A stretch of DNA of 61,919 nt, counting the filler, from Hausera hauseri (lineage: Eukaryota), in the NCBI GenBank assembly GCA_046269625.1. It is 12 parts of 12 records of this genome, joined end to end, with 100 filler letters (N's around TTAATTAATTAA, not from the genome) between each part and the next. Parts side by side here need not be neighbours in the genome. Positions count along the whole stretch, not along the records: positions 29,320 to 33,719 come from JBJURY010600000.1; 11 more parts are not named here. One strand, given 5' to 3'. This document shows, piece by piece, positions 4,341 through 54,500 of the stretch (the stretch's first letter is position 1; each line of letters starts with the position of its first letter). The translations under genes and the position numbers were made by a program. The notes under the pieces are model-generated. The model was given only the letters and a program-made list of their open reading frames with translations. It was not told the origin of the DNA and searched no databases.

Positions 4341-5405
4341 ATGCAAACAAAAAAGACATCGACAACACCGACAACGATGGAGTATGGTTCGATTTGCGTC
4401 ATCCTGTCGGGTATACAGGCGTCGACAAAGTGAGAGTCAACGACAATCCAAACTGTGGCTCGGAAACAGTTGGCATGCAGCCTGAACAAATCGATAAGAA
4501 AACGATTTCCAACTCGTGCATACCGTGCTGCAGGCGTAAATAATATATGGCAAATGGATCTAATGGAAATTATTCCGTACGCTAGCATTAACGATGGATA
4601 TCGGTACGTGCTGATGTGTATTGATGTGTTTAGTCGTTTTGAACGTGCAGTTGCCGTCAAATCAAAATCCGGTAAAGAAATTGCCGACTTTGTTCACACA
4701 TTAATAAACCAACAACGGAAACAACCAACGCCGAGGCACGTACAAACGAATTTGGGTAAAGAATTCTACAACTCTCATGTCGCATCGGTCCTGAACTGGT
4801 TCGACGTAAACCACTATTCTGTGTTTTCTCAATACAAAAATGCACTCGTTGAATGATCCAATCGAACGCTGCGCAGTCGCCTGTACGAATTCTTTACGAA
4901 GCTAGGCAATAAACGCTGAGTAGATGTACTGCCGGATATTATTCATGCGTACAATCATTCGACACATAGCGACATCAACAGATTACGACCGGTTTATGTA
5001 ACTGATGATTTGGACATGTGGCTTTATCAAAACAGAACACAACGACAACAAGCAACACTTAAGCGTCATTCAAAATATAAAATTGATGATTAGGTTCATA
5101 TTTCAAAGCTGAGTACTACACCATTCATCAAGAATTTCAATCAGAACTGGAGCGATGAGGTTTTTCTTATTTCTGCAATCAACAAAAAGCAAGTACCTGT
5201 TATGTACGTTTTAGAAAATGACAACAATGAGGAAATACGTGGTAAATTCTATGAACAGGTACTGTAAGTGTTTCCTGAGAAACCCGATATATATAGTATT
5301 CAGGAAATTATACGTTCACGAGGCAAAGGTTCGAATAAACAATATCTCGTCAAGTTGCAAGGATACATTACACCAAGTTGGATATTTTCATCGCAAATTG
5401 AATGA
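4341..5405 (+). pseudogene. Polinton rve (retroviral-like) integrase with C-terminal chromodomain
   Basis: WQMDLM, CIDVFSRF, QT(N)LGKEFYN, VE*SNRTL, AYNHSTH, NWSDEVF, GKFYEQ, YLVK.QGY..PSWI; several stops. Confidence 0.93.
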
Positions 5406-19857: not shown

Positions 19858-21040
19858 TTTAAATACAACTACTTTTATAGAAACGTCTAAAGTGATTAAT
19901 TATAGTAGATCTATACCGTCTACTATGGGTAATAGTTCTTTAAGTACTTCTGAATCGACCTTCGTCAAATCGACAGTACCGAATAACGTAAAGTCGGTTC
20001 ATTCTTCAATCCTGACATGTGAAAGTGAGCCAACGAAATCAACTAACCATACATTAGTAATACCGTCACATATGGATGATATTTCTTTCAGTTCACCTAT
20101 ATCGTATTTTTCAAAATCGTCTATTACGAGTAATATTGCATCAGCTGAATAATCCGAACGGGCTGACAGTAGTACTCTAACAGAGGTACCAAATGTGTAT
20201 GGAACGTCGACATCTGTACCAAACCAGACACAAAGTATTATATTGAGTAGTATTGCATCAGTTCATCCTTTAACCAAAACCGCTGAAACACGATCTTCTA
20301 ATATTACTAAAGACTGTACATCTACTCCATCAAATCTAATTAACACGTCATCTAGTAGTTCTTTATCGACATCCTCGAAATCGACCATGTCGCATAACCT
20401 TACATCCTTTTGGCCTTCACACTCGTCAAAAATGACTAGCGGTAGTACTCCTACACAGTCTTATGTGAGTAATGGTCCTTTGACTACATTTTTATCGCAT
20501 GTTTCGACACCGTTAAGTCTGGATAACTTCACCTCAATTCAGCCCTCTACAACGCGACTTCAAACGAGATTGTCACTATCGCCTAATAGGAGTTCTCTGA
20601 TATTATCACACGAAAGCTATAACTTTACGCCATCATCTAAACCAAGCCAAACAGTATGGAAGGTACTAAGTATGTTTACAATAGTTCAGTCTTCCAAGAC
20701 GGCTGTTGCGACTGAATTATCGGACATGTTTAACAGTAGTGCTCTCATGAATATACATATTAATAATGGTTCAGCAAGAACCCCTATATCGACCTTGTCC
20801 AAATCGACTGTATTCGATAATATTACAACAACATATGAGGCATATGGATCTCTGAATACATCTATTATGAGCGCCGATACATCAGTACATCCGTCAATCA
20901 CGACTCCTCTTACAGAATCGTCAAAATCTGTTTACGACAGTACATATATAGGTATTGGTTCTACGCGTACATCTGCATTGAATTTCTCTTCATTTATCAA
21001 GTCCTCAGACACAATGCTTCCAACCGAAACTTTAAAATCC
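19858..21040 (+). pseudogene. Ser/Thr-rich mucin-like coding sequence (probable host exon), one in-frame TAA at 20150-20152
   Basis: ORF 19892-20152 and the first 280 aa of 20195-22366 share a frame; internal diverged repeats (STxxKSTxxxN; SVHPxxT). Confidence 0.6.
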
Positions 21041-23250
21041 TGCACTCTGAATTTTGGTGCCAGACCTGCCGGGGCGGAGGTCCCGACCGCCAACCCTGCG
21101 CCGGTCGGTCGGGGGGCACCTTCGATGTCGACCCTAAATCACGCCCCCAGGCACACCACTACCTCCACCTCCATTCTCTTTTTTTATAACAACATTCACA
21201 TATATACCCTCCATACTACACACCCGCATATCCCCATCTTTCAAACCAAACTTTCTTCTATCCTTGGTTCTTCTGACTTCTATCTTAGCCATCACATTAT
21301 TATCATACACCTCAGCGAAACTTTACCTTCCTTTTTAAATCACGCTTGGTTCAACATATATCTCCATATCCGTGGTGGAATGAATTCCCCATCAACTATC
21401 GACACCACGGATACAACCACCATAAAAAAGCCAATACCCATTCTCTACCACTCCAAACCAAACCCTCCACTTTCTTCCATCGATGCAAATCCCCATAAAA
21501 ATCCTACCCATACTCCACACTGCACTGAATACTTCATAGATAATGAAAAGTCCAGTAAAACCTGGCTTTACTTTCATCAACTGTGGTTACAGTCTAATGG
21601 TATCACAGATTCTTTATCTAAAGCCCACAGCCTACTCTATCTTCTCCCAAATTCCATAAAAGCCTCAATACATAACTTGTTAGACATTTTTCAGCACCCC
21701 GACCCTTACACCCAACTATTCGACGCTGTATTAAAACAGACCGAACCTTCCATTGACTCCATAATGCAGCGTTTCTTTAACGAAAATGCAATGGGCACAC
21801 AAAAACCCAGTGACTTCTTACGCACCTCATTAGCACACTTGCGTAATTTTGGAGTAACTAAGGAACATAACCCGGATCTTTTACGCCATTATTTTCTGAA
21901 TGCCCTACTTATCCAAATCCGGGCCCTTCTTACCGTGGTGGAAGACTTCACGCAGCTTGAAAAATTGGCCGAATTGGCCGATAGGACATACGATGTCCTA
22001 CACATAAATTCACAACCAGTAGTTTCAGCAGCAGCTGTTGCTAACGACATAGAAACAACTAACACACCCATAGAACAGCAGCTTAATCAGCTACGAGCTG
22101 AAAATATTGCATTGCAGGCAACTATCAACAACATAAATAATAAATTAAATGAATTGTCTTTGTCCCGACGAGGGGGTTTTGCCGCTTTCCGTACCCGTTC
22201 TACGTCACGAAACCGCTCACCATCGCCTAAGCGTTCGTCGATCTGCTACTACCACAGCAGATTCAACACAAATGCTCAGAAATGCTGCCTGAGTTGCCAA
22301 TTTTATAACCAGAAGTTTTTCTCGGACACCGTTGTTTGCATTTATCACGCGAGATTCAAAAATTAAGCACGTAAATGTATCCCTGGCTGTACCTTCAAAT
22401 CCAACACGAACGAAGGACGTACTGCCTTCATTTCTCACAGTCGTCCCACTTCATCTTTCGAAAAAAATAAACTTCGCCGCCAGAGGTCACGGCAAACTCT
22501 GGCAAAGGCACGCTTTCACATTCTGACCGCCGACACATCTCTTTCGCAGTCTTTACTCTAAAGGCTGCAATCACTGCCCCTTCAACTCAATCTCTAAACT
22601 TCCTTATTGATACAGGGGCCGCAATTTCTCTATTACCGCAAACCTTTCTTACACAAAACTCTCCATTCAAACTTAAGCCTTTATATACTGATTCAGGCCA
22701 GCTGCTGTACATCTCGGGCACAGCTGCATTATCTTTTACCTTGCCTGCTTTCTCTGCGTTTTTCCGCTGGACGTTCACAGTCGCTAACGTCCAGTCGGCA
22801 ATCCTAGAATCTGACTTTCTTTCACATTATAATCTACTGGTTGACTGCAGCCAGCGATGTTTGAGGAAAGGCACCGTTGGCGACATTTCTGGTCATGTAA
22901 ATAGCGTTTCGACTACCGCGCAGTCGACTGTGGGGCGGAAGTCAATCTTAAAAACGTCTGTGAATAATTCGATTTTTTATAATAATTCGAATTTTCATAG
23001 TAATTCAATTCGGAAATTTTTAAACAATAACACTGATATAAGATCGAGATTTGATGTCGATAAGTGTGGTACTGCCACCAACGCTAACTCATTCGACGAA
23101 AATAGCTCAGTCAACACCATTTTCAATTCAACCATCTTACACCAAATACCACTTGACTGCACGTCACATAACCACACACATCGCATCCGCTACTTCTCAA
23201 ACCGTTTCATCACTTTCACCGAATCTCTCACAGCCACCTACAAAATAACT
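21041..23250 (+). mobile_element. gag: Truncated Ty3/Gypsy element: leader, gag (DUF7041-like, two CxxHxxF..A..C...C knuckles) and protease
   Basis: WL...WLQSNGITD..KAH.LL.LLP; KPSDFLR; LAELAD; CYYHSRF..AQKCCLSC and CIYHARF..*ARKCIPGC; FLIDTGAAISLLP; ILESDFLSHYNLLVD. Confidence 0.9.
22462..22503 (+). promoter_or_regulatory. Mutated gag-pol -1 ribosomal frameshift signal
   Basis: A AAA AAT in the gag frame, 7-nt spacer, then GCCG/CGGC and CCAGAG/CTCTGG pairings; pol is in the -1 frame. Confidence 0.6.
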
Positions 23251-24002
23251 AACAATTATCTGTGTTTAATGTTTAATAAAATTGTAAGTCTTTTGTGTTG
23301 TTACTTAGATAGTTATAAAACAACAAATTTTATTAGATTACGAAAAAATCTATTAGATTACAATGTCAGAAATTGGGAAATAGGGGTACCCTTGAGAGGT
23401 CCATTTTTATGTCGAGGGTAAATTTTTCGTGGTGGGACCAATTTTTCTCGAGGGGATTAGTTTTTCGGAGGTCTTTGTTCTAAGGGGTAGGAATAGTAAA
23501 ACCCAACATAGATAACAAAAGTCTTTGTTCTATGGGGGTAGTGGTCTTTGTTTTAGTGGATGGGAATAGTGAAACCATTCTGCGCCAGGTGTTAGGGTTT
23601 ACCGAATACTGCTCGCTGATTAGTCAGTTTCCCGTACCCCCGATGACGTGTGCTCTTCTCATTGGCCAATTAAAAATTACTATATACATTGCTCTATTTC
23701 TATTGGTTGCTCATTCTCATTTTCTACACATATTTTCTATCTAAAATTTAGGTTTAAAAATAGAATATATATAAATAAAATATTAATTATACTACTTACA
23801 ATAATAAGTGTGTAAAGAACAAAGGCACTACGTACCTGGATATTATTACATAAAGACAAATTCCAAGAATTAAGCCTAACAAAGGCACTTAGTCAATAAA
23901 AACACATTTTTAACCTATTTTCATTATTTGAAACTTTTTAAAATAACAACATTCTCTTAAAGTATTTAAATTCATTTTTATACTCATTTAAAAATATTCT
24001 AA

Positions 24003-24761: not shown

Positions 24762-27690
24762 CAGAAAAATGTCTTTTGGGTTGTAGATATTACGACGAAC
24801 GTTTTGCGATGGACAGTCCTATCTGTATTCACCACACAAAATTCCACTCTTTAGCCAGATGGTGTGTTCCGGGATGTAAACATTACAAAAACAACTTCAG
24901 TTTTTCTTCATCTTCTTCTCCTCCTCCTTCTTCTTATTAGTCATCTTCTTTTCCTCCACAATCTTCAAAAAACTAAAAAGGCCGCCAGATGTTACGGCAC
25001 ATTTGGGCATAGGCAATACTGCTCAGTCTTCTGGACGTCTTAACACCGCCTCCGCAGTTTTTCTGTTAAAAGCTGCACTATTCTCTAGCAAAACTCCACA
25101 TATCGATTTTCTCATCGATTCAAGATCTGCCTTTTTACTCCTCCCTTTGTCCTTCGTCCCTACATCAATGGCAGTTTCTTCTCCGCTTTTGACTGCCAGC
25201 GGTCAACCTTTGAGAATCGCAGGTACCACGGAACTGGTTTTTACATTTTCAAACTTACCAGGCAAGTTTGTCCGAAAATTTCACGTGGCCAATGTTAAAT
25301 CGCCAATAATCGTCCCAGATTTTTTGGCCGCACACGATCTGCTAATTGACTGCAAGTATGGCTGTTTGTTACGTAGAGACTCCCTCGTGAACGTTAGCAA
25401 TTGTCTAACAGACAGCTCAACAGGCCAATCGTCTGCGAACTCACACGTGAATTTTGCAAACTGCCCGTCGGTTGATAACGATACATCTAGTATTTTATTT
25501 GTTTTCTCAATTACACCTCAAATATCGACGTCGATTTTAAAACAATCGGTTAAACCGAATGTTGACGGCGGCGATGTCGTTCGTTCTTCGCCAATCACAG
25601 TCACCGCCTCCTCTGATAATAGGCCTCAATCCTTTATATCACTAGATTCCAATCTCAAATCTTACATCATTTTTTCTTGTTCTCGCATACTCAAAAATGA
25701 CTCTAGCTTTAAGCCCCTGTCAACAACTTATTACCACATTGTCACTCAACACCAAAGACCTATCAGACAAAAGGTGAGACCATTATCGCCTCGTAGACGA
25801 AAAGCCGTGGAATTAGAGTTTAACGAACTCGAAAAATATGGTATCATTCGGAGGTCCAAATCACCATGGGCTTCACCACTACATGTAGTAGCAAAAAAGG
25901 ACGGTACTTTTCGACCATATGGCGACTACCGTCTAGTAAACAATCTAACCATCATGGATGCTTCCCATTACCGCTCATAAAAGACATCCTGCACAGTCTT
26001 AACAACACCAATACCTATTTAACAATAGATCCGCACAAAGCCTACCATCAAATTCGCGTTGAACCTGATGACATTCCAAAGACTGCTGTCATCACTCCAT
26101 TTGGCCTTTACGAATACATATTTATGCCATTCGGTTTACGTAACGCAGCCCAAACTTTTCAACGCCACATCGACACCGTTCTCTCAGGCCTTGATTTTGC
26201 TCATCCTTACATTGATGACATATTAGTTGCCTCCAAATCCGTGAAACAACACCATGAACATCTCCGAATTATTTTTCAGATTACATTATAGCAACTTACA
26301 AGTTAATTTCTCCAAGTGCAACTTCTTTCAGAAACGTGTCAAGTTCTTAGGCTACATTATCACTCCTCACGGCCACTCTTCACAACCTGATCGACTACAG
26401 CAATTAAAAAACGTAACACTACCGACGACCACTACAGATATGAGAAGTTTTCTTGGCACACTACATTTCGCCCATAAGTACAAATCGCATTGCTCTGAGC
26501 TTACAGCACCTTTCGCACACCTCTCATCCGGAAAGAAAAGACAGTTAATTCAATGGACTCCCGATTTAGTCACCAAATTCGATCACTTACGTGAAGACCT
26601 AAACACCGTCGAAATACTGGCATACCCAAAACCCGACGCGGAGCTAATACTTACCACCAACGCCTCTACCACAGTTACTGGTGCAATACTACACCAAATT
26701 TCCAACGGCGTCGACGAACCTTTGGAATTTTACTCTCCAAAACTCAAACAAACAGAAAGCCAATATTCTACATTTAATCGTGAGCTACTAGCCATAGTTC
26801 TGGCAGTAAAACATTTCAAGCATCTCCTCGCCCGTCCATTTATCATCCAAACAAATCACAAGCCTCTGCTGCACATCATGTCACTAAAACAGCCATCACC
26901 GGGGCAGGAATGACAGATATCGTACATTTAGTTTTGTCATAAAGTATATTTCAGGTACTGAGAATTTGGTCGCTGATTTCCTGTCACGGTCGATCGGCTC
27001 AATTACGGTTGAACCAATATTTTCTACCGAAATTCTAAAGCTCAACCAGCCGTCTGCCGATATTGTTAGCTCTTTAAATCCTTTGAAATCATTGATGGCA
27101 CTGTGTACGACACATCTAACCCCGATAATAAAAAAATCATTATCGCTCCTTCTTTGCAGAAAGCAGCTTTCCTTCACACATTCACTTCATCATCCAGGCT
27201 CAAAAGCCACGTTTCGCTTGCTCCAACGTCATGTAGTTTGGCCATCAATGTGCACAGATGTACAGGGTTGGGTTAAGGAATGCGTCGCCTGTCAAAAATA
27301 CAAAGTCAACAAACATCTTAAACCGCCGCTTTACCATTTCCCATGTACATCACGTTTTCATACCGTCCATCTTGATCTTGTCGGACCTTTATCTTTCGAC
27401 AACGGGTATCAACATATTCTCACTATGATGGATCGTGCTTCTCGCTGGCCTGAAGCCGTCCCTCTCCGTTCAACAAACACTGATTCAGTAGCAGACGCCT
27501 TCATCAAAATCTGGATCAATCGCTTTGGATCCCCACGGCACATCATAACGGACCAAGATCAGCAGTTCGAGTCAGAAATTTTTAAATCGCGTGTTAAATG
27601 CTTGGAGATATCACATTTCCATACAACACCGTACCATCCGCAAGCAAATGGACTCTTTGAAAGATTCCATTGAACTATGAAAATTTCTTG
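24762..27690 (+). mobile_element. pol: Ty3/Gypsy gag C-terminus and pol (PR, RT, RNase H, integrase), frameshifted
   Basis: CIHHTKF..ARWCVPGC; FLIDS; SPWASPLH; GDYRLVN; MPFGLRNAAQTFQ; YIDD; RELLAI; VADFLSR; HLDLVGPL; YHPQANGLFERFH. Confidence 0.95.
24967..25008 (+). promoter_or_regulatory. gag-pol -1 programmed ribosomal frameshift signal
   Basis: A AAA AAC heptamer directly before the gag TAA; 7-nt spacer; GCCG/CGGC and CCAGATGT/ACATTTGG pairings; pol is open in the -1 frame. Confidence 0.8.
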
Positions 27691-29037: not shown

Positions 29038-29319
29038 CTGGAAAAAACATAGAAGTTAATATTTTTTTAAGAAAAATTCTTACATATTTAAGAAAATAAA
29101 CAAAGTGCACATTATAACAACAAAAAAAAAGGCTGAAATGCATTAAAGAGAATTAAACAACCTAAAAGAAGAAAATATCACAAATTAACATTGCAATGTC
29201 GAGAAATTTCCAGTTTTTCNNNNNNNNNNNNNNNNNNNNNNNNNNNNNNNNNNNNNNNNNNNNTTAATTAATTAANNNNNNNNNNNNNNNNNNNNNNNNN
29301 NNNNNNNNNNNNNNNNNNN

Positions 29320-31108
29320 ATCAGTACTGACTGAGCCATTGAGGGGAAGCATCCTAACATAATTTGCCAAGTACAACCACGTACTTTCTTTATACTTCAA
29401 GCGGATCCTATTTGTATTAATATGACCAGTATAGTATAAATTATAACTTATATACCAAAAACTCCAGATGTAACTTGACCAAAAATAAGGAATTTACTCC
29501 AAAAGTCGTAAAGAATCTTTCTGGCTGTTCTTTCTAGATGATCAACTGGCAGCAACATTCCGTAGTTAGGCACACCGTCTGGTCCTTTAGTAACAGTATA
29601 CACAAATTTTTTAATAACTTTTCTCCGATATTCTGAAATAATACTTGCTTTCTTACCGCCTCTAAGTCGGTTAATGAATAAAGTCCACTAGTAGGGAGTT
29701 ACCTGTTTACTTTAAATTTCATAGCTATATCTAACGGTAATAATCCAATGGTTTGAGGAATGTTCGTCGTAGCCGGTGGACGTGTCTTAATCCATCGTCC
29801 GTCATTAAGCTTAAAAGTTGGATAAAAATCTTTGTAGCATAGTGCAAAAGTGATTTCGGTAGGTAATAACAATTTTCGTGTAATCGGGTCTACATACCCA
29901 TATTTGTCTATATTTTTATCTTTGTTCCGCACCATCAGTTCATTCGTACAATTTGCTGTTGGGGATGTTACTGGTGTTACTTCTATGGGCGGACATCGAT
30001 ATACATGAAGTATTTCTCCCTGTACCCTACCAAATATTCCGTGGTGATAACCCATAATCAAAGCGATATATTCGGGAAATTGCCTAGCTAATATCAAGTC
30101 ATGTTGGTTCAGTTTCTGAGCAATTTTACCATCATGTTATACAACTCGATAAAATGCATTTTCGTAGTATAATAGATATAATCTATCTTTTTATTCGTAT
30201 ATAAATACCATTTTATAACTTCAGTTGGTAGCTTTCAAGTATTCACTAGTGTTTCTTTTGTTACAAACAAGTCTTCATAAGATGTTGAATATACCGCGTT
30301 TGATCCACAAGTGGATACTGCTCCCTTGCGTGTTAATACTATTCCATCTTTATCGTTGGATGACATCAATACTTTCAGGGAAGTGGTTTGTTTTAGAGTT
30401 CGTGGGGTAGGTAGACTTATGTTATGGTTGTGTTCTGGTTCCTGGTATTCATCATCATAGTACAGATCGCCTTGTATTTCATACATAGATACTTGTTTCA
30501 GGAAAGCTAATGGACATATCATAATCGTCTTTTCCCAAACTAAAGTAGATTCTCCCAACATGCATACCCCATCAGAATACGTACAGGATGGTCAACATTT
30601 TTCCTGTAATCGCATCTAAGTTTACTTTGTATTCTTTTAGAGTGACAGTATAATCTTCTATTTGCACTACGGAGGATTCCTTTTGACCATTTATCATCAC
30701 CTTTTCCCCTTCGCAACCTCCTCCATACCCAAGCCATATTTTTCCAGCTGTAACTATTCGTGAGTGAACTCGTTTTCCTATACCTGCTTGTACTGGTTGT
30801 TTTAGTCCTACGTGAATTGAATCTACAGCCTTTCTACAAATTGCAGCAATTATTGTTACAGGTTTGGGTAATCCTGGTGGGATAATCACTGAATTCCATG
30901 AATTATGACCACAATTGTAAGCGAATGTTACTTTATTAACTTGGCATTCCTTTACTTGAACTTGTTGATAACTGATTCTCTGATACAAATTGTAATTGTA
31001 AGGACCCTCTTTTTTCACTGATATTGGATTCGCGTTCTGACACTTAAATATATCCATTAACAAAAGTCTGTCTGTTATTTCTGGTTGGGAACAATCATAA
31101 GCTTCCAA
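29320..31108 (-). pseudogene. env: Chuvirus-like class III viral fusion glycoprotein (Env-like); frameshifted, cut at contig end
   Basis: KA|LEAYDC, ECQV...YNCGHNSW, CTYSDGVC.LGESTLVW...CP, CG..VYST, LYTNKKIDY, GEILHVYRC, CTNEL.V, YVDPITR, C-terminal FWSKFLIFGQVTSGVFGI TM region. Confidence 0.88.
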
Positions 31109-31756
31109 TGCTTTGGTCGTTTTCAAGCTGCTCACGGCTATTAAGTATAATAGTAAATGAATGATTTGCACTACCCAATCTGAGATGTTGGTATCCTTGG
31201 GGTATATTAGTGTAGTTGGATCGAATCTCTTGAGAATTTCATCCCAACCACCATGTTTAGTTACCCAATCTTTTGTCAACTTGTCCATATGGTAAGCTAA
31301 TTCCTTTACCGTGTGATGTAGTTTAGCATCAATTTCCGTTTGATTTTTAAAACTAACCACTATACATCCTAGTGCCATCAATAATCGATTCTGATTACAA
31401 TATTTTAATAACCGTGTCAGTGCTTTATTTAAACCTCCTTTCATTTCATATTTATGTAATAACCTCGTGATTTGTGATGAAAATTTTCTGGCAGTTTCTA
31501 TTATGGACTGTAACGGAAATGTTGTAATAGCTGGTATTTGCTTAAGTTGTTATGGGTTTGTTTTCTTAATTAATTGCTCCAGAAGTTCATGAGTTGTCAA
31601 TGTCACTTCTGTTATATTTGTGTTATTCTGATTTGATGTACCCGGCATTGGATTTTGTGTTGGTTCATTTTCATCATCACTGATGGTGAATCGTTGTAAA
31701 TTGTCATATAATATATCTTCTAATGTTTCCCGTTGTTCCCTGCGTTTTCGTGACAA
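31109..31756 (-). pseudogene. Bcl-2-like domain plus hydrophobic signal/anchor, in frame with the glycoprotein (one TAA at 31550-31552)
   Basis: BH1-like LLKYCNQNRLLMALG, BH2 DWVTKHGGWDEI, BH3-like LQSIIETARKF; TM/signal VVQIIHLLLYLIAVSSL. Confidence 0.7.
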
Positions 31757-31804
31757 GGGTCTTTTCTTTCTTTGCCTTTCTGGTTTTTCTTCCTCTTCGG
31801 GTTT

Positions 31805-33280
31805 TTATTTATCACCACTTACTGGGTTAAATTCGCACTTCCGCGGTCTTCCTTCTTTTTTCTTGATACCTATTGCCATAGTAATCTGATAGGTCTTTCC
31901 AGTAGGTAGTCCATAGTCCACAACATAATCATTATCAACGGCCAATCTACCATAAACATCAGTTTTTGCTATTATATTGGTTTCAAAATCTAATTCATCT
32001 AGTACCTTTCTTCGAAGATCCAAAAATTTAGTAAACATTCCTGCTGTAACTTCAATTACTTGTTCTCGCTTGTTGATTTCAATTTCTATATTTATAATAT
32101 ATGGTTGCTTTCTTCTAAGTTTCCGTTTTAAATCTCTTCCTAGCGTCTTTAATAATTTTCTTGCGGCTAAAAAACAAAATATATTATCCTTTGTTAGTGG
32201 AATAAGTAATGATGCGTATTCTATTCGATTAATTAATGGTAGTGTTTCATATTGTCGTAAAGCGTCCCATACCTCATAGGGTGCTGAATCAGTCATTTGT
32301 AATTTGGCTTCAATTGTATTGATTGTTGATTCCAGAAGTTCATCGTATACTATGGAACCTGGTAAAATATTCATTTCTGGAACAAACTCTTGATTTTCAG
32401 TCGGAAGTTGGAAAGTGTCTGACGGAGATATAAGTTCATAATCTAAGACTTCAAACATTTCATCTTCGTCTATTATTATTTGGAGTTCCTTCTGGGATGT
32501 ACTCGGTTGCATTGTGTCTCGAATATTTTCAAATAATGTTGGTTGTTGTGGTGGAGCCGTTGGTTGGATGAATGGTGCGACAAACCTATCGTCATACGGA
32601 TCTATCCATTCTCCAGTTGGTCTAATTCTGACAGGTTTTTGTGAATATTTATCAGCATCTATATCTGGATATCTTTGAGTTATTGGTTCAATTACCGGGA
32701 TTGCTCTAGCTTTTCCAGTTTTCTCTAATTCTCCTATTGTTGGAAAAGCTATTCGTAACATCTTTCGGCTTTCTTGTATCCATGGTACATTATATTCCAC
32801 TCGCACTGTTTTTAGATATTCATTTAAGCATCTTTGTGCCATTATTTCCGAATAATGGCCATTATATAGGTCCAAACATTTGTAGTTCCTGTTTGTCTGT
32901 TCAAAGTCATAGACAGCGGTTAGATTTTCTGGATTTATGTTCATTGTATTTAACAGTTCCGGTAATCGACGTCCAACAATTATTTTTCCTAGTAAATATC
33001 TATTTATAAATTCACTTACCGATTCTTGTCGTTGTGGATTGAACCGTCTGCTATATTCCGTATACTTAGTAGTATCCGGTATGTTTGGACATACATCAAT
33101 ATTGAAGATTGTTTTTCCTTCCAGATTCTTGGCAGTGACCTGAGTAAGTCCTTTTTGGTTCCCTCTAGTTATGCATCTGACAGTAACAATTATTTCTCTG
33201 TCTTGTATCGTAGGTTTATCCACAGTTAACACGGGTGTTTCCTTAAGCAAGTGTATTAAATATACCGGGTAATTATCCAA
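31805..33280 (-). CDS. 491-aa polyprotein segment: inactive DEDDh (ISG20/REX4-like) exonuclease fold, acidic linker, ubiquitin-like domain
   Basis: IIVTVRCIT...QVTAKNLEGKTIFNIDVCP...LLGKIIVGRRL...GHYSEIMA; INIEIE...IEV...LDLRRKV...YGRLAVDNDYVVDYGLPTGKTYQITM; same frame as the Bcl-2/Env ORFs. Confidence 0.6.
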   Translation of the reverse strand: MDNYPVYLIHLLKETPVLTVDKPTIQDREIIVTVRCITRGNQKGLTQVTAKNLEGKTIFNIDVCPNIPDTTKYTEYSRRFNPQRQESVSEFINRYLLGKIIVGRRLPELLNTMNINPENLTAVYDFEQTNRNYKCLDLYNGHYSEIMAQRCLNEYLKTVRVEYNVPWIQESRKMLRIAFPTIGELEKTGKARAIPVIEPITQRYPDIDADKYSQKPVRIRPTGEWIDPYDDRFVAPFIQPTAPPQQPTLFENIRDTMQPSTSQKELQIIIDEDEMFEVLDYELISPSDTFQLPTENQEFVPEMNILPGSIVYDELLESTINTIEAKLQMTDSAPYEVWDALRQYETLPLINRIEYASLLIPLTKDNIFCFLAARKLLKTLGRDLKRKLRRKQPYIINIEIEINKREQVIEVTAGMFTKFLDLRRKVLDELDFETNIIAKTDVYGRLAVDNDYVVDYGLPTGKTYQITMAIGIKKKEGRPRKCEFNPVSGDK

Positions 33281-33719
33281 AGGTTGAATGTGATAGTCTC
33301 ATTTATAAGGATATTTAAGAAGTATCTTTGTTTCTTTGAAACTATTACCGTTTTATTATTAATTTGCAATCGAACTTCTCCCTGATTGGTAATTATAGCA
33401 CATGGTGGATCCTTTCTTTTGATTCGAATTTCAGCCCTTTTACTGTAGATCTTATCAATACCTCCCATGCAAATCGATCCTTGTTCAGCGATATCCGCAA
33501 ACCCTATTCTATCAGTTTTCTTGTCTTCAAACAGTTTATCCCATTTCTGAACAATACTTATGTCCATGTGCTGTAATACTGCTTCTGGAATTAAGGTAGT
33601 ATTACATGTTATTTCATATAAGGATTATCCATCGTTCTTATGCAAAGGTCTACTTGGAAAAATGAAGTATGGAGATCCTTGACGGTTAAGTTTAATCTGA
33701 TACTCTTGTCGTAAATTAT
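33256..33719 (-). pseudogene. Upstream continuation of the same polyprotein (frameshifted, unknown domain)
   Basis: ORF 33256-33567 overlaps the 491-aa ORF; its frame continues, with one stop, to the contig end. Confidence 0.45.
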
Positions 33720-34029
33720 NNNNNNNNNNNNNNNNNNNNNNNNNNNNNNNNNNNNNNNNNNNNTTAATTAATTAANNNNNNNNNNNNNNNNNNNNNNNNN
33801 NNNNNNNNNNNNNNNNNNNATTAAACAAGATATTTTAGAAGTATTCTAATACTGTATCAACCAATTCTAAAGTACATTCATATAATTATACAATGAAAAT
33901 TAGGAACATATTTCAATCACCATGAGCATAAATTATCAATAACTGTCTAAATAGACTGTGGGAAAGAATACAACAGAGGATTAAAATCATCACTTAAATA
34001 TTAGGTCGAAATTTATTGATTTTTTAGAT

Positions 34030-35199: not shown

Positions 35200-36253
35200 G
35201 AATGACGTTGAGGTCAGAATGGTAGATACGCGATCTACTAACACCGTCGATTATACTTGCGTCGAAAAACTGACAAAGACTGTCAAACAGACTCGGCAAT
35301 AGACTCAACGTTGGTTCGGGAAACAGTTAGCATACAGCCTAAACAAAGCGATAAAAAGGCCGTTTCCAAGTCGTGCTTCCAACCATGCTTTAGGTGTAAA
35401 TAATGTGCGGCAAATAGATCTGATGGAAATGATTCCGTACGCCAGCATCAACGATGGGTATCGGTATGTACTGACATGTATTGATGTATTTAGTCGTTTT
35501 GCACGTTCAATTACCGTTAAATCTAAGTCCGGTAGAGATTGCCGACGCTGTTCACGGATTAATTGAACAACAACAACCATGGAAACATGTACAAACGGAT
35601 TTAGGTAAAGAATTTTACAACACCCGTGTCGCATTGGTTTTGAGGCGGTTCGGTGTAAACCACTACTCACTGTTTTCCCAATACAAGGCTGCACTCGTTG
35701 AACAAGTTAATCGAAGTTTACGGAGCTGACTGAACAAATTCTTTACCAAGCATAGCAACAAACGCTGGGTAGATGTACTACCGGATATTATCCATTTATA
35801 CAATCATTTGATACATCCTGGCATCAATGGATTACGGCCGGTGGATGTAATCGATGCTTTGGACATATGGCTTTACCAAAACCGAACATGACGACGACGA
35901 CGACGACCAATTAAACGTCCCAAGTATAAAATCGATGATTACGTACGTATTTCAAAGCTGAGAACGACACCATTCATGAAGAATTTCAATCAGAACTGGA
36001 GAGATGAGGTTTTCCGAATTTCAGCAATCAACGGAAAAGAAACACTGTTATGTACGTTTTAGAAGATGAAAATAGTGACGAAATACGTGGCAAATTTAAC
36101 GAACAGGAACTGCAAGTACTACCGGAAAATCCTGATGTGTATCGTATTCAGGAAATTCTACGTTCAAGCGACAAAGATTCTAATAAACATTATCTCGTCA
36201 AGTGGCACGGATACACTGCACCGAGTTGGATATTTGCACCGCAGATTGAATGA
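35200..36253 (+). pseudogene. Polinton rve integrase with chromodomain, copy 2
   Basis: QIDLMEM, CIDVFSRF, QTDLGKEFYN, KRWVDVLPDII, YLVKWHGY..PSWI. Confidence 0.92.
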
Positions 36254-36635: not shown

Positions 36636-37660
36636 ATAAGTATTTACATGGTGTTGCCGAGCAACAGTTGTCCGACGACTCATCCGTACAATTCAGCCAG
36701 TGAATACGTTGTAGACTGGAACAATCCTTTAGATTTATCTGGAAAAAAGGAGGTTGCACTGACAGAATTTAACTTTCCCTAGGCACCGGGGACATTGAAA
36801 GGTAGTATGAAAAGAACGTGCAACAAGACTGTTACTGAAACCAAAACACATTCGTGTACTCTGACACTTACTAACAATAAAAGAACAGTTGGAGAATCTC
36901 ATATTTGCACGACCAGTAAAAATTACGATTCATACGGCGAGATCGGTGTTTTTATTTTAGGGGGAACTTACATTTCGTGTCAAATTTTGAATTTACTTTC
37001 ACCTTTGAATGCTCTGATATGGATTGAACAATATAGAGTACAAAGGTAAAGATATTAAAAGTAAATATGCAGTTGCTCGAAGATTAAGTCCCGTACATTA
37101 CCAGACAACGGTGAAATTTACCAATACAGTACAAAGAGTGTCAACATCATACGTATCGATTGGAGACTATATCTATTGTGAATCTGTAGCACATCTCTGA
37201 CAACACTTTTCAAATCAAAAGTACAAGATATTTAAAGTTTCAATGTCGACTGGCTAAGCATATTGTCAACATTTCATTGGACAAAACTTTGTCCATGGTA
37301 TTCAGTTTTGAAAAATATCGGTTTGAGGCGAATACGAAGACGGTACATGTTGCAATACTTAAACCCAAACTGAAAACTGCATAAAGTCAAATGTACATTC
37401 AGGTAAACGTCACCGAACCCATTTTGGTGGATGAAGTACGTGTACCGCTACTCCGTGCAATTTATCCGGAAAGCAGCAAGTATACTGCTGGCGACAATGT
37501 CACTGTCAAGATCGACAATCCAATGGACCTACCTGTCGCAACTACATCTATAAACAATGTTGAGGTTAATATCAGATGTGACGCGGTCTACTTTATTGAA
37601 TTTCCGTACGGTACCACAACCAGTCTAACTCTTCATTTACGTCGAAACCAACATAATTGA
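36636..37660 (+). pseudogene. Penton-like minor capsid paralog 2 with central insertion
   Basis: IYMVLPSNS.P..HP.NSASEY.V....PLDLSG..EVALTEF; C-terminal VPLLRAI...NPM.LPV...INNVEVNIR...SLTLHLRR. Confidence 0.85.
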
Positions 37661-37861
37661 TTCTGAAATCGTTTCCATTTACAGTAAACCCCAGCATAGC
37701 CGTGAACTGCCGTCTTTCGCTGGTAAAGAGTATGGCTCTGGATGGTTGCGTACATTGACACGTTTAGCATTTCCGGTGTTGAAGCGTATTGGAGCTGTGG
37801 CAGCAAAAACAGCACAGGACGTACTATATGAAAACAAATCGATTTTACCATCATTGAAGGA
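37653..37861 (+). pseudogene. Polinton amphipathic core protein, N-terminal part
   Basis: EYGSGWLRTLTRLAFPVLKRIGAVAAKTAQDVL; not in ORF track. Confidence 0.75.
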
Positions 37862-39980: not shown

Positions 39981-40352
39981 TCAATCGAAAATCGTACGAT
40001 GACGTTTGTTTATAGTTGACAAGCTAGCTAATCTACCACCACGTTTTTGTTTTCTCATCATCTTCAGGCCACTGCCAGCGAATTGTTTTTTGATCGATTC
40101 AACGACTCCCGGTGCAGCGCTTTTTATTTTCGACAAGGCGTGTCCCTACAGTGATGGTAAAATCGATTTGTTTTCATATAGTGCGTCCTGTGCCATTTTT
40201 GCTGCCACGGCACCGATGCGCTTCAACACCGGAAATGCTAAACGTGGCAATGTACGCAACCACCCAAACCCATATTGTTTACCAACGAAATACGACAGTT
40301 CTACGCCCTTCTGGGATTTACTGTAAATGGAAACGATTTCAGAATCAATTAT
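39981..40352 (-). pseudogene. Polinton amphipathic core protein (full length, one stop)
   Basis: QYGFGWLRTLPRLAFPVLKRIGAVAAK.AQD.L...FAGSGLK..RKQKRGG...TIFD*; abuts the MCP start. Confidence 0.8.
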
Positions 40353-40738
40353 ATTGTTGTTGTTGTTGGATTTGACGGAAATGAAGAGTTAGACTGATTG
40401 TGGTACAGTACGGAAATTCAATAAGGTAGCCCGCGTCATATCGGATATTCTCTTCAACACTGTTTATAGATGTAGATGCCACAGGTAGGTACATTGGATT
40501 ATTGAGCTTGACAGTGACATTGTCACCTGCAGTATACTTGCTGCTTTCCGGATAAATTGCTCGCAGTAGCGGTACACGTACTCCACCAACCAAAATTGGT
40601 TTGGTGACGTACACGTAAATGTACATTTGATTTAGCCCCTTTTCAGTTTGGGTTTGAGTGTTGCAACATTTGCCACCTCCGCCGCTGTCTTTGTATATGA
40701 TGTCTCTAACCGCTGTTTTTTAAAACCAAATACCATAG
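40345..40738 (-). pseudogene. Penton-like minor capsid C-terminal part, interrupted by a Gypsy LTR
   Basis: Close match to 37293-37660; homology stops exactly at the LTR end (40739). Confidence 0.88.
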
Positions 40739-41173: not shown

Positions 41174-42979
41174 TTACCCCCCCCGGTGGCAAAAAATGGC
41201 ACTATAGTAGACAGCGAGAATATGAACAGTAAATCGCAAAAGGAAATAGGTTTTCTGTTCTAATCGATTTTTATGTGTACTAGGCGTTGTACTTTGTCGA
41301 GATATTGCTCTCTACTGTACTTACTGAAAATAACTGCGTGTTCTGTTTTTCTGTGGTGTGTTTATTTGCTGAGATGTACGTAGGGGTGAAAGTTTTGTCG
41401 TATTTTGGGTTAATCGTTTGGTATTATTTTGGTTGGGGGAAGTGAGATTTGTGACAAACGATTAATTGAGGAAGAAATGGATGAAGAAGGTAATTAGTGT
41501 GAAATGGAAAATGACGAGTGAGGAGTATAAAATGGAGAATGTGAAGTAGAGTTGCAGATGAGAGAAGGGGAGTAGGAATTGGGACGAGAGAAGCAGAAAG
41601 TGATGAATGTGAAGTGGTGGATGGAACGTTAGCTGTGGAAGATGAGATGTGAGAGGTAACAGGTAAAGAAGTGGAAGTAGGGGTGGAAACATTAGAAAGA
41701 AAAGTGGGAATTGGGCCAGGAGGTAGTTGATGATTTGTTGATTTAGCAGGGAACGGAGTAGAAAAAAAAGAATCGAGAAAAGTGCCAGTGGAATTGGGGT
41801 TGTTTTATGTATCCTTAGGAGAGTCATCTACGAAAAAGGCAGGTTTTAGATAGGTGATGTGAACAGTTTGTTCTTCACCGCTTTTGAGAATTGTAGCTGT
41901 GTGAGACGATAAAGAAAGAAGTTTGAATAGCCCAACGTATTGTGGTTAAAAACTACCAGGTGAAGGATTTCGAAGCCAGACAAACTTGGCGGTATACAAA
42001 TCATTTGGTATATTTGATATGTTAATATTTACTATTTTGCAAAATAAGTCTTTGTTTAGTGTTACGAAGTGATCTTGGGTATTTCGTATCATTTCGTCTG
42101 CTGGTGTATCGTCCAGATCCCTTAACTCAAAAAGTGCTCGAATTGGTGTTCCAAACAATGCTTCAGCTGGTGCACAACCTGTGGTGGTGGATGGTGTGTT
42201 TCGCCAGCCAAGCAAGACAAGAGGTAGAAGAGCTGTCCAATTGCTGTGTGATTCAGGTAGGATTTTAAGTGAGATTTTCATTGTGCGGTGGAATCTTTTT
42301 AGTAAACCGTTCGCTTGGGGATGATATAGAGAGGTGTTTATGTGTTTAATTCCCAAACGATTGACTAAGGACTTAAAGAAATTTGACTCGAATTGTGTAC
42401 CTTGGTCCGTGATTATAAAGCGAGGGCAGACAAATCTGCTGATCCACGTTTTGATAAAGACCTCAGCGATAGTATCTGTGTTGGTGGAACGTAATGGAAC
42501 GGCTTCTGGCCATCAAAAAGAAGGGTTCATCATGGTGAGTATGAATTGATGACCGTTGTCTGGACGAAGAGGGCCGACTAGGTCTATATGAACGGATTTA
42601 AAACGCGACGTACAGGGGTAGTTATATAATGGTGGCTTTAGATGCTTGTGAGTTTTGAATTTTTGACATGTCGCGCATTCCTTAATCCAAGCCTGTACGT
42701 CTGATAAGCCTGTACGTCTGGCATCCGGATAACGAAGAGAATGTACGTTATGAAGTGCAGTTTTCTGCAAAGTTGGAGGCAAAATTGGTTTGTGATTACC
42801 GGGTTTAGAGGTGTCAGAGGCTATTCCGTCGATGATTTGGAGCCATTTAAAAGACTTAAGAATTTCCTGTACTGGTACATTTTGCTGAAACACTGCTTTT
42901 GAGAAAATGGGAGTGACTCCAATGATATTAACTGATCTCGACAAAAAATCGGCAACCAAATTGTCAGTGCCTGAAATAT
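40739..42979 (-). mobile_element. 3' half of a Ty3/Gypsy element (integrase, 3' UTR, PPT, LTR), same family as contigs E and F
   Basis: VADFLSR, CATCQKFK.HKHLKPPLY, HIDLVGPL, TDQGTQFES, YHPQANGLLKRFHR, PTVHIT..KPAF. Confidence 0.93.
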
Positions 42980-44560
42980 NNNNNNNNNNNNNNNNNNNNN
43001 NNNNNNNNNNNNNNNNNNNNNNNTTAATTAATTAANNNNNNNNNNNNNNNNNNNNNNNNNNNNNNNNNNNNNNNNNNNNGCCCGAAGAGATACTCCGGCG
43101 TGCTGAGGAGAATTGGAGGGCACGGGAACCTTATCTACGACATATGAAGCAGTTTGTTGGTGACAAGGACATGATATTCAGTCAGATTTTTCGCATATGG
43201 CAGAAATTGGCGGATACCTATGCACTGTATACCAACAGTCCACGCCAAATGCAGTTTGTGGATTATTTTGTCCAAAGCTACCAGATGATGGTGGAATACG
43301 TTCCCATGTGGCAATTGGCGGATCAGATTTGCTTTTAGCAACATTTCAATGTAACTAATTCCGATGGTCTCGTTCATTCTCCTACGGAAATGGTTAACCC
43401 ATATGGTATGTGTACTACTAACATTCATTAAAAACGATTTAATTGTTGTTGTACGAAACAATGGAATATAAATGTTCGATTCAGACATGACTTTGCAGCA
43501 TACCTGGTTATTATAGCCAGACAGGTGTGGTTCGACCAAATACTAGGTTACAGAAAAATTAAAATGATCCTTATAGTCAGATAGGTAGGGAAATGTGATT
43601 GTCCAAAACTGGGTTAAAAAATTTTTTTCAAATGTTTGTTATAATCAGATAGATGGGAAAATGCAGGTGTCCGAAACTGGATCATTCCCATTTTTTTCCG
43701 ATTCAAAGCATTGCGGTGAGTCCGAATCATGAGAAATAATATGACCTTTTCATTAATGTGAGCTTCACAATATTTCTGTTCCACATTTAGTAGTAGTACA
43801 CATTATTAGTTTGTAGGCAGACGGTCTCAGGTGTCACTACCAACACCTCCTTGTGATTAGTAGTAATACTCAATTATGAGCTCATGGTAATTTGTGCGTT
43901 CGGTTTTAAGCGTGGTCGTCGTCGTCTTCGTCATCGTACAAAATAAAATTCACAATTTTTACAAAAAACGAACGCATTTACAACGATAATTATTTTGACT
44001 TTTTATCAGTGCGTTTTTCCATTTTATTTTTCACCCAAATCCGTTAATCTGATCGTGAGGCAGTTATAATGTGAAAATTTTCCCAACTTATGGGCAATGT
44101 ATGAAACTCATTTCCATCACCGGCAAACTTGAACATTTGAAAATTTTACCCGACGGAAATTTTTCCAACCGGTTTTCCCCATGTTCCCTAGGTCGGACGA
44201 CGACGAAACCGTGTCCATTCGACTTGCCAGCATCAATTTTACCTCTGTACAAAATGTCGGTATACCAGCAACATGTGTTGCATTGCCAGTTGCACATTGC
44301 CCGTTTTTCTTCTTCCGCCTTCTCTGTCGCCGGGTTACATTTTTCCGCTTCGCGGCGCCATTAACTTTTGTTTTTCTTTTCCGGCTGGACCAATTGGTCT
44401 TGGTTCAAAGTCCATTGGCCGCCCTTCTTCTTACACTGAGGGGAGTCTCCGACCATCAGATATCTAATGCTCAGAATTGCGAGATAAAAGGGGAAAAACT
44501 GGTTTTTAGCTCGATCTGAGCACTTTTGGGAGCTGGTTATGAGATGGACACTTCTACCTA

Positions 44561-49700: not shown

Positions 49701-50371
49701 CGTAGATTACAGTATGACTTGACCAAAAACTGATCAGAACCTACACTCCGAGTCTCCGCAGCCATTAATGTTTCCTGTCTGCGTTTTTCTGTCTTGTGTG
49801 ATAATGACTGGGTGGATGTACTCATGCCATGCCATCGTTTTTTCTTTATGAAGTGGGTATTCTTTGCCAGCAGAGATACGAATGTATTCTCTCTGCCTCT
49901 GTACCTTTACATACGGTACACGGGTTGCCAGCCAATCAGACCATCATTATTTTCCTTTTACGACAGGCAGATGGAAGCTGTGTGCCTACTTTTCTTGTTA
50001 TATCCCGAGGTCGAATTGCGTACACTTGATTCTGTAACCCATGGTTTGAAAGTCAAGTAGGAATAACACAGAGCTGCTTGCTTTGTCCCGTGTACGTCCA
50101 AAAATGAAATACATAGCTTCATTTTAGACTTTTCTAGTCTCAGTTCGCGTTAGGTGAATACCTGGAATTGTGAGAGCGTATTCGTATTCCGTTACCGGGA
50201 TGCGCCACGAGAAAGTACCGAGAGGTCTTGGCCAGTTTGTTGACGAATATAACGAAAGGATGTGTCTTCGAATCCATTGGTGGTCAGTAAAATGTTTATT
50301 TTTACGAGGGTCAGTGCCTAGCATTTAGCAACAATTCTGATCCGTCGCGCAACAGTTCTAATCCGATTTGT

Positions 50372-51091
50372 TTGTCAGCTTTGTTTACCTCTACCACCAC
50401 ACCAGTTTTGCTCCCGGGATCCATGGAGGTCTGCTCGGGTAGGGAGAATCAGTTGCTCCTCGCCGCGGTCGGCAACTACGCCGGCTACCTGGCCAGGAAG
50501 GTCCAGGCCAACTCCTCTGTGGCCGAGTGCTGCAAGCAGGAGCTTGCCCAGCAGGAGGAGATGGAGATTGCCGTGGAGTTTGAGAGGGGCGACTCGCCCT
50601 CTGTGATGTTCGACGCCCTGGTCGAGCTGGTCGACAGGGGAGAGCTGGAGATGGGCCGGGCGGTCCTGAAGCGGCCATCTCTCCCCATGGCCCACATGGT
50701 GTCCTTCGGGATGTCGATGTGGGACTCCCTGATGTGCAGGGAGGATAAGAAGGAGCGCAGGGTGAGGTTCCTCTCCCTTGCCATGCGCCACAGGGACGGG
50801 TTCAGGCAGCTGCTGGAGTTCCTGGCGACCTCAGACCCGACCCTGCAGGGGTACAGGTGCCAGGAGGGGCACAGGCTGGCCAATACCATCTTGCCGCACA
50901 TCAGCAGGTCCCTCTTCAACTGTTTTGGTGCTATTTTCTCCAACGACGTGACTTCAGAAGCGAGGAAGAATAAGGCCTTTGAGCAGCCGACCGGCAGGAA
51001 GAGGAGCAGTGTCGAGGAGGGCAGGAATGAGACGGCGAGGGACAGGAACTTGTACAAGTCTAGGAAGCTGACCGGGACCCACAAGTCATAG
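50372..51091 (+). pseudogene. C-terminal part of a P-element/THAP9-like transposase, GC-rich
   Basis: NYAGYLARKV....CC..L...LVDRGEL....LKRPSL resembles the YxAGYxxxK...CxxC...GgLxxPS tail of P-like transposases; basic C-terminus. Confidence 0.55.
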
Positions 51092-51549: not shown

Positions 51550-54500
51550 GCAAATCGGCCCCCTACGGATTGGCCCCGCGCCCCGTTCCCCGTCAACTAA
51601 TAGTGAAGTCTGTGGATAAAGCAACACACATGGGACGGAACATGAATAAATCACCGGCATCAAAAAGCGTATTTGAAAAATACCTACAGCATATGCGAAG
51701 TGGGCTGGACACCCAGGCCACACATTTATTTCAGAGTTATGTTTGTTTTATAAATTGTCTCATTATTTACGAGTATCTTTATCCGTATCAAAATATTTCA
51801 AGTTATTTTTGGGAAATATTCTGATTTTGGGTTATCATTTTTTCAGAGTCTCTATCTGTAACAGACTATGGAGAAAGGAAGTCAAAAGAAAAGAAAAGGA
51901 GGTGCTGAAAAAGAGCGTGATCGAAAGAGGAAAAAGTTGGAAGAGAGTGCATCACAGTGCAGAAACCTTTTGGATCTGTTTAAAAATACCAATGTTGTAT
52001 CTGTAGACATCAGTGAAGATGATAAGGACATTGGTTTGGAAAGTGGACCTTCAGGAGTTAATGTAGTGACAATCGATTCATTCGCAGCTGAGTCGGCAGA
52101 TGACCATGTGGCGGAAAAAGCCTCTGAAGTAGTGCAAAATGTTGACCAGGAAAAGGTGTTTTCAGCTATAAAAGATGGTGCATCTGAAATTACAGAGGGA
52201 ATCTCAGTTGTCTACTTCAAGAAACCAAGAAACTTCAAAGAAAGTTTATTGTTTTGGAATTACCATCCAAATCAGAAAACTGAAAATCAAGTTGTCAAAA
52301 GGTCTTTTTTTCGAAAAGATGGCACAAACAGATGGTGGTTGTCTTACAACAAGGAAAATCATTCGCTTCATTGTTCAGTATGCATAGCGTTTTTGAGCAC
52401 ATCAGAAAATTCTACGTTTATCAAAGGATTAACTGACTGGCGCCATGTGCATACTCGGGTTGAAGAACACGAACGCTCTTCCTGTCATTTGAAATGTTCT
52501 ACGGCTTATTTAGTAGAACAAAAGAAGTCCAGCATTTCTCATTTGCTTGCACGTAGCCATCATGATGAAATTGGAAAAAGACGACAAGTGATGGAAAGAG
52601 TTGTGGATGTTGTTAAACTCATTGGCAAGAGAGGACTCAGTTACAGAGGAAGCAAAGAGGAGGCAGCATACACGCTTGAAAATGATGAGATCGACCATGG
52701 AACATTCCTGGAAGTTATGAAACTACTTGGGAAGTACGATTCTTGTACAGCTGATCATCTCTCCCAAGTTGTTAAAAAAAGCAAAAAGTCACACGATGAA
52801 AAAGCAAAAGGTTCACGAGGTCGAGGCGCTTTGATAACTTTACTATCGAAATCTACAGTAAACTCTGTAATCACAGTTATCCGGGATAAGATACGTCAGT
52901 GGATTTCTGCAGAAATTACAGACATGTTTTCTGTTGAAATTGATACCACTCAAGACATTTCAACGCAAGACCAGTGCTCTGTTATTGTACGTTATGTTGA
53001 TAGCTCTGGTGATATCCAAGAAAGGTTGGTAAGCGTAGTGAAATGTGATGAATCTTCTGGTGAAGCTTTCGTGCAACTTGTTTCTGAAGTAATGTCAACA
53101 CTCAAACTTGACCTACGTAACTGCATCGGAAATTCGACTGACGGTGCAGCAAACATGCAAGGTCGTTACAAAGGCTTCAGTACTCTACTATCAAAGGAGA
53201 CTTCAAATCACTTACATGTTTGGTGCCACGCACATGTGTTAAATTTGGTTGTGACTGAAGCTACAAGTGTTGTGGTGACTACTTCATCATTGTTCTCACT
53301 ACTTAATGACATAGGAGTATTTTTTCGAGAATCGCATCAGCGAATGAACTTGTGGATTCAGCACTCTTCTACTGTAAAACGAATCGGGATGATTGGAGAT
53401 ACCAGATGGTGGTCAAAGGATGCCGCTTTAAAAAAGGTTTTTGGTTCGTTCAATAATCCAAATGGAGCACTTTTCAAAGAAATCATTATAACTCTTAATG
53501 CCATTAAAAACAAAGATGAGATACGTGCAAACGTTAAAGCCATGGCACATGGGTACATTGAGAGTCTCCTGAAGTTCGAAACGGTTCTCACTGGTGAAAT
53601 ATATCTGCGGATATTTTCTTACACCACACCGCTTTCAAAGTATCTGCAAACTGACTGTGCACAACATGGTGGATCACTTGCTTGGTAATATGCAGAAGAT
53701 GCGAGAAGATTTCCAAGCTTGTCATGATGCAGCTGAAAAGTTTGCTCAATGGGCAAATGATCAACTGAATGAAACTGACACAGATCTCATCATGGAAGAG
53801 ACCCTTCCTATAAGACGACAAAAACGGCGCAAATGCATGGCTGCAGAACTATCTGTTGATGAGGCTACATCAGCCTCTACTCCATTTGATAAGTATCGGA
53901 TTGAAGTATACACCCGTATAGTGGACACTATAGTGAGCAGCATTGAACAACGATTTGACAGATCATCAAGCTCAACATTGTACGCTGATTTGTCACTCCT
54001 TCATCCACGAAACTTTGGAGAAGTCCCACCGGCATCATCAATGGAAGACCTTCACAAATATTTGCAAAGATTTAATGAGGATGCAACGACAGAAGAACTA
54101 CGCACAGAACTTCGAAACTTTATGGAACAGTGGCCAACACTGAAGCAATCGGTGGTGGATGTTTATCCGGCACAGAATGACAATCACGATGACAATGATT
54201 TAGGAAGTGCTATGCCTTCTACATGTGATTCGTGTAAAGCCTGTCCTCTTTGCTGCTACAAGGTCCTCCTCAAGTTAAAAATCTTCACTGATGCCTACAG
54301 AAACATTGGGCTTGCATACAAGTTTCTTCTAACTTTGCCCGTGTCGCAAGTAGCGTGTGAACGTTCTTTCTCTGCTTTGAAAAGAATCAAAAGCCGCTTA
54401 CGAAGTACAATGACGCAAGAACATCTTGAAGCTTTCATGCTGATGTCTGTTGAAAAAAAACATTCTTTCAAAAATTGACAATAAGGACATAATCGATGGT

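Follow-up and report, generated by a model that had tools for sequence, protein, structure and literature searches.

A probable Bcl-2-fold domain joined in frame to a chuvirus-like envelope glycoprotein in a decayed, high-copy repeat of Hausera hauseri

A 4.4-kb contig of H. hauseri (29320–33719, minus strand) carries along its whole length the remains of one polyprotein, in which a helical domain that probably has a Bcl-2 fold is followed in the same reading frame by a chuvirus-like class III envelope glycoprotein (Env). We favour, with some reservation, the interpretation that a retroelement gene present in many copies, likely of Ty3/gypsy type and Burro-like, has decayed in this contig, and that its polyprotein joins a probable Bcl-2-fold domain to Env via one helix predicted to serve first as a signal and then as an anchor. 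Within this interpretation, the open frame in a relative, the family of the Env, the place of the helix, the selection on the frame and the high copy number are observations. The DNA analysed (the window, 61,919 nucleotides including filler) is made up of 12 small contigs and 100-base N spacers, and adjacency across the spacers is not genomic. Those flanking the contig described here lie at 29220–29319, containing TTAATTAATTAA, and at 33720–33819.

The initial annotation had placed two open stretches, 31550–31756 and 30572–31444, in one frame separated by a single TAA (31550–31552), and this is indeed the case on the minus strand. The limits it gave to the protein had to be revised. Between 33337 and 30590 the frame spans 916 codons and is interrupted by three stops. 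Position 31756, proposed as the protein start, is an internal TTG from which the frame is open further upstream, and the envelope gene does not stop at the proposed 30572 but continues, in different frames, as far as 29320, where the contig ends. An intact relative with the same fusion exists: P0001, one among 1,761 candidates, is a protein of 1,963 amino acids encoded by a single open frame on an ENA contig of 7,573 bases, and it keeps the helical domain and the glycoprotein in one ORF. P0001 is 73% identical to the window ORF and colinear with the whole contig, which aligns by tblastn to residues 483–1957 as five frame pieces of 54–68% identity and is a decayed internal piece of one polyprotein gene belonging to a high-copy repeat family. 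P0001 opens with a low-complexity segment of 310 residues (Asn-, Arg-, Ser- and Asp-rich), followed by approximately 885 residues without library match, the helical domain (residues 1196–1325, hence preceded by about 1,195 residues), a hydrophobic helix, the LEAYDC motif at 1363, a 543-residue ectodomain, a membrane helix (1911–1929) and a short tail. It ends 34 residues past the Env anchor, and the window contig stops at the same place. The low-complexity segment, residues 1–310, is also Tyr-rich, has RS- and RD-type repeats and is perhaps RNA-binding; it is absent from the window contig. Two in-frame TAA stops, at 31805–31807 and, after the first helix of the helical domain, at 31550–31552, fall where P0001 is open, which argues that the element was built with this fusion and that decay has since interrupted it. 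All full-sequence comparisons are made with this one relative: word-index protein searches returned P0001 or nothing, and scans of viral and metagenome contigs confirmed no relatives there. Two repeat proteins, P0002 and P0003, returned together with P0001 by a HMMER scan of 1.84 billion representatives, were dropped as spurious.

The stretch was found in two public runs, with matches to 15,623 contigs of X1 and 1,943 contigs of X2, mostly 80–95% alike, and 30 of 30 bins were covered; X2 held a 0.11 share of the words, yet all bins were covered. None of the runs listed as containing the stretch was an RNA run, from which nothing follows for expression. Summed depth in X1 and X2 is not a copy count, and, as the window itself may derive from one of the two runs, they do not amount to independent proof. 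The variants between copies are concentrated at third codon positions. Among 40 of 78 variants listed for 31040–31545, 28 fell on the third codon position, 9 on the first and 3 on the second (P 2e-6 for the third position, with one third expected), and in the covered part of the helical domain 19 of the 28 variants listed were at third positions (P 2e-4). Over 31040–31545 no indel was present among the copies at a share of at least 20%. Moreover, one X1 contig runs without a gap from 31264 to 31063, crossing the BH2-type motif, the hydrophobic helix and LEAYDC. Together with the one open frame of P0001, this indicates that the in-frame fusion reported initially is ancestral and not an accident of decay. 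Identity to P0001 is highest in the helix and its flanks (32/36, 89%) and in the helical domain (99/130, 76%), lower in Env (384/590, 65%), and lowest in two linkers (54/152, 36%, and 36/77, 47%), the second being a poorly conserved charged linker at 31609–31840. On this sequence evidence the fused frame is under selection, and the repeat, a very abundant one, is likely a virus-like jumping gene.

The glycoprotein had been recognized correctly. The Pfam family PF24664 (Monjiviricetes_fusion) matched the window ORF with an E-value of 4.9e-17, a second window piece with 8.2e-12 and P0001 with 1.9e-63, the last covering residues 1345–1952 and profile positions 5–591 of 653 (215 bits). The chuvirus-like class III (gB-type) Env occupies 29336–31108 on the minus strand and is broken by frameshifts near 30590, 30130 and 29640 as well as by stops. 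The ectodomain, which in P0001 contains 14 Cys and 4 sequons, has a hydrophobic helix on either side, one in the signal position before it, with cleavage predicted, and the anchor after it. In the contig the C-terminal membrane helix lies near 29480–29420 (minus strand), and Env is truncated by the contig end.

The domain preceding Env is all-helical, has approximately 130 residues (31219–31606, minus strand), and was named Bcl-2 in the initial annotation ahead of any search. All motifs quoted there are present on the minus strand: LQSIIETARKF at 31513–31481 as BH3-like, LLKYCNQNRLLMALG at 31411–31367 as BH1-like, DWVTKHGGWDEI at 31270–31235 as BH2, the hydrophobic helix at 31177–31124, and LEAYDC from 31108. 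The BH2 assignment was borne out by alignment of DWVTKHGGWDEI to the BH2 of A1, Bfl-1 and BOK; the pattern W[ILVF]xxxGGW, composed after the site was seen, has a single occurrence across the six window frames and is absent from all 200 block shuffles. The segment at the BH1 position is there, but it is degenerate: the BH1 core consensus is NWGR, which is absent from P0001 and missing here too, QNR standing in its place in both sequences with, by eye, only the Arg position kept. The BH3-like sequence is likewise present, although as a Bcl-2 element it receives no search support save a non-significant full-length Foldseek alignment.

Three libraries returned Bcl-2 proteins for this domain. TIGR00865 was the sole NCBIfam family for both domain-holding queries (2 of the 4 proteins queried hold the domain), with E-values of 0.053 and 0.0069 and 13.5 and 16.4 bits against a cut-off of 283. 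PF00452 was the fourth of six Pfam families matched (E 0.054, 14.5 bits against a cut-off of 31.4); its match begins just behind the BH1-position segment, covering profile positions 54–100 of 100, and was not found by Pfam in the window's own stretch. When the PDB was searched with a two-sequence profile, 5 of the 10 matches at E≤10 were A1, Bfl-1 or BOK (best E 0.016), with a designed thioredoxin outranking A1 at the top. Foldseek, run with a fold model of pLDDT 43 that did not include the helix before the stop, placed A1, Bfl-1 and BAX at ranks 1, 3 and 5 over 129–163 columns, with no match at E≤0.001 and a best TM of 0.31; the ESM Atlas gave no usable match. Because the Bcl-2 matches of the three libraries all rest on the same approximately 45 residues, in the BH1–BH2 half, they are not independent. 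The proposed Bcl-2 identity has weak matches that recur in three libraries in its favour, but no curated cut-off was reached and these matches give the N-terminal half no support. The domain could instead be a Death fold or an unrelated bundle whose BH2-like motif is a coincidence beside an ordinary signal peptide. We consider this improbable. PF00531 (Death) was matched in both sequences with E-values of 0.021–0.028, no weaker than the Bcl-2 matches, the p100 death domain (PDB 2d96) appeared at E 0.18–1.9, and the fold search produced no significant match; however, the Death matches span only about 40 residues and their location varies, whereas the Bcl-2 matches of the three libraries coincide, the BH2-type motif was absent from all the shuffles, and there is published precedent for BCL2 ahead of Env.

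Like A1/Bfl-1, BOK and BAX (PF00452, TIGR00865), the domain is all-helical, has a BH2 motif and is followed by a membrane helix about 25 residues on; unlike them, it lacks NWGR, scores far under the cut-offs and lies within a polyprotein. Whether such a domain would be anti-apoptotic is, judged from its sequence, close to an even question that leans slightly towards yes. Some poxviral Bcl-2-fold proteins act as immune-signalling inhibitors or scaffolds. A role of this kind here, as a scaffold, an immune-signalling inhibitor or a matrix-like membrane tether for particle assembly, is unlikely though worth weighing: the BH1 core is missing in both sequences, the N-terminal half is without Bcl-2 support, and the neighbouring domains resemble, by eye, degenerate enzymes. 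On the other hand, the BH2 motif and its distance from the membrane helix match those of tail-anchored Bcl-2 proteins, and the accessible part of PMC13465017, citing Lee 2026, reports that Burro1 guards cells from apoptosis and aids planarian stem cell survival, though through its IAP region.

The helix joining the two domains (31124–31177, minus strand) is hydrophobic, has 18 residues and lies 25–26 residues after GGW, at the position of a Bcl-2 tail anchor; it also occupies the position of an Env signal. In P0001 hydrophobic peaks occur only at 1337–1357, with a KD19 peak of 1.78, and at 1911–1929. The PF24664 match begins in both sequences at profile position 5, within the helix and 18 residues ahead of LEAYDC, which suggests that the helix stands where a signal sequence is expected. 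Immediately downstream, KTTKA and the L of LEAYDC (31108–31123, minus strand) form a predicted signal-peptidase site that is the same in both natural sequences, and its Thr at −3 and Ala at −1 fit the signal-peptidase rule. The helix is moderately hydrophobic and contains Gln and His. Its flanking charges (−2 before, −1 or 0 after) do not favour the orientation required, which would have to be imposed by the long, folded N-terminal part. That the helix serves as both signal and anchor is plausible on these features. We found no paper in which a Bcl-2 tail anchor is said to double as the signal of an Env, although the primary Burro papers may describe the junction.

If the helix is used in this way, the first approximately 1,340 residues would be synthesized in the cytosol and the helix would then enter the ER membrane with its C-terminal side luminal. 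Signal peptidase would cleave between KTTKA and LEAYDC, and the 543-residue ectodomain would be translocated and anchored by the helix corresponding to P0001 residues 1911–1929. The upstream product would remain at the ER on its cytosolic side, its Bcl-2-like domain beside the membrane, one per envelope molecule, and there this domain would damp a death or stress response in the cell that produces the protein. The initial annotation had envisaged a membrane-anchored cytosolic viral Bcl-2. A small free protein of this kind is not supported, as cleavage by signal peptidase and nothing else would yield an upstream product of about 1,360 residues, whose membrane end would be the Bcl-2-like domain; speculatively, this product may be cut again, for example at the ubiquitin-like part described below. 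The hepatitis C virus (HCV) core-E1 junction provides a precedent for the proposed cut-and-anchor mechanism, as far as the accessible part of PMC5402940 describes it: a cytosolic protein ends in the envelope signal peptide and is anchored to the ER by the same peptide after the signal peptidase cut. The proteins and the virus are unrelated to those considered here, and in HCV the core is released by a further SPP cleavage.

Upstream of the helical domain the same minus-strand frame contains a 497-aa open stretch (31808–33298), in which we recognize, by eye only, a degenerate DEDDh-exonuclease-like part (approximately 33200–32800), a linker, a helical bundle and a ubiquitin-like segment. Over 33714–32764 (minus strand; P0001 approximately 390–800) we see, again by eye and as leads only, an oxygenase-like stretch flanked on both sides by degenerate stretches that resemble a DEDDh exonuclease. 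None of the DEDDh-like, oxygenase-like or ubiquitin-like names received a significant library match, and the fold model of the upstream part is of low confidence (pLDDT 35). Its best-predicted part is the small helical bundle (32344–32108, minus strand; pLDDT 55–66), which is 60% identical to P0001. The ubiquitin-like segment (31843–32092, minus strand, 84 residues) is 75% identical to P0001 (63/84) and sits where Burro has its Ubi2/SUMO-like motif; it has no Pfam or PDB match, and the model pLDDT is under 40 there.

The claim that no Env of this architecture had been described, the main novelty put forward initially, falls with the published order of the planarian element Burro/GYPSM1, in which Ubi2/SUMO-like, BCL2-like, Env and protease parts are reported in one frame, with BCL2 followed by Env (Arkhipova and Yushenova 2019, PMC6431247). 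As here, where the Bcl-2 identity is likely, a BCL2-like motif immediately precedes Env within a single frame of a long polyprotein, and copies number in the thousands, decayed ones carrying stops and frameshifts. The two differ in size, P0001 having 1,963 residues and Burro about 4,900–5,100, and in layout: P0001 apparently ends after Env, without the in-frame protease-RT-RNase H-integrase of Burro, has no Gag, BIR, MATH or ankyrin match, and begins with its 310 Asn/Arg/Ser/Asp-rich residues. The Burro Env has matches to mononegavirus fusion glycoproteins and is called homologous to gypsy Env (PMC6431247), whereas the Env described here matches PF24664. Burro is an LTR-bounded element of over 25 kb in a planarian; the contig analysed here has 4.4 kb. 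Likened from Burro's description and not from its sequence, the fusion works like the BCL2-Env part of Burro.

Other retroelements are described with a similar Env. HSV/gB-type errantiviruses of Platyhelminthes, Nematoda and Bryozoa, according to the accessible portion of PMC13524379, have the order GAG-ENV-POL and a chuvirus-like class III Env with the ectodomain bounded, as here, by a signal peptide or second membrane helix; the main text contains "Bcl" 0 times and does not name Burro, and in our sequences no pol is linked to Env. The BEL/Pao element Anakin (PMC7642597, cited in PMC12440569) has likewise captured a chuvirus-like glycoprotein, but its hosts are mosquitoes and the accessible text mentions no Bcl-2-like part.

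In a different reading the repeat is not an autonomous LTR retrotransposon. It would then be either a cargo gene that is non-autonomous or what is left, endogenous and amplified, of some unknown virus (RNA or DNA) with the glycoprotein at the end of its polyprotein. Indeed, no Gag, protease, RT, integrase or LTR linked to the fusion gene was found in P0001 or the 4.4-kb contig. In P0001 there was no Pfam match to Gag, protease, RT or integrase and no CCHC pattern, and its 1,195 upstream residues, the 5′ end of which may be incomplete, showed no Gag with CCHC knuckles, BIR, MATH or ankyrin; such a reading would also agree with the end of P0001 34 residues past the Env anchor and with the viral and metagenome contigs being without a relative. 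However, the thousands of diverged copies and the third-position bias fit repeated amplification of a coding element, the Gag-Env-Pol order is known in flatworm elements (accessible part of PMC13524379), and, as the P0001 contig has just 7,573 bases, further genes may lie outside it. We regard this different reading as highly improbable and keep a Ty3/gypsy-type, Burro-like element as the likely one.

The small contigs joined in the window are unrelated to one another, so retroelement ORFs on the others are not attributable to the fusion element. They include decayed Ty3/gypsy-type pol pieces at 24880–27673 (plus strand) and 41946–43031 (minus strand), with protease, RT, RNase H and integrase, and, at 20153–23421 (plus strand), a 737-aa ORF with about 320 Ser/Thr-rich residues before a gag-like part (DUF7041, E 0.041), behind which lies a protease ORF of retroviral type. 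Elsewhere we observed a hAT transposase in two frames at 51862–54478 (plus strand; DUF4371 E 8e-14, Dimer_Tnp_hAT E 3e-9), a dispersed repeat on two contigs (4522–5405 and 35382–36253, 77–87%), inverted arms of about 480 bases that are 88% alike and about 2.3 kb apart (37384–37860 and 40145–40633), perhaps of a DNA transposon, and a 266-aa ORF without significant Pfam match in the most GC-rich kilobase (54%; 50291–51091, plus strand).

Among the papers searched, none puts the BCL2-like motif of such elements to the test or accounts for its place next to Env. The locus described here offers a concrete and testable reason for this adjacency: a single helix would serve as both anchor and signal, and the predicted cut site next to it is conserved. 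A relationship to Burro would make the element another decayed copy of a known design. It is also possible, if doubtful, that it represents a lineage of enveloped retroelements separate from the described Burro, either independent of it or deeply diverged, in which the signal peptide of the class III fusogen would have been replaced by a captured Bcl-2 tail anchor, so that each envelope would be born with an apoptosis inhibitor anchored in the ER; counting Burro too, the arrangement would then be a recurrent or very old cassette of invertebrate endogenous retroviruses. Should the element not be Burro, the Bcl-2-Env cassette would extend to a second lineage, and this would bear on the question whether invertebrate LTR elements act as real viruses that manage the death of their host cells.
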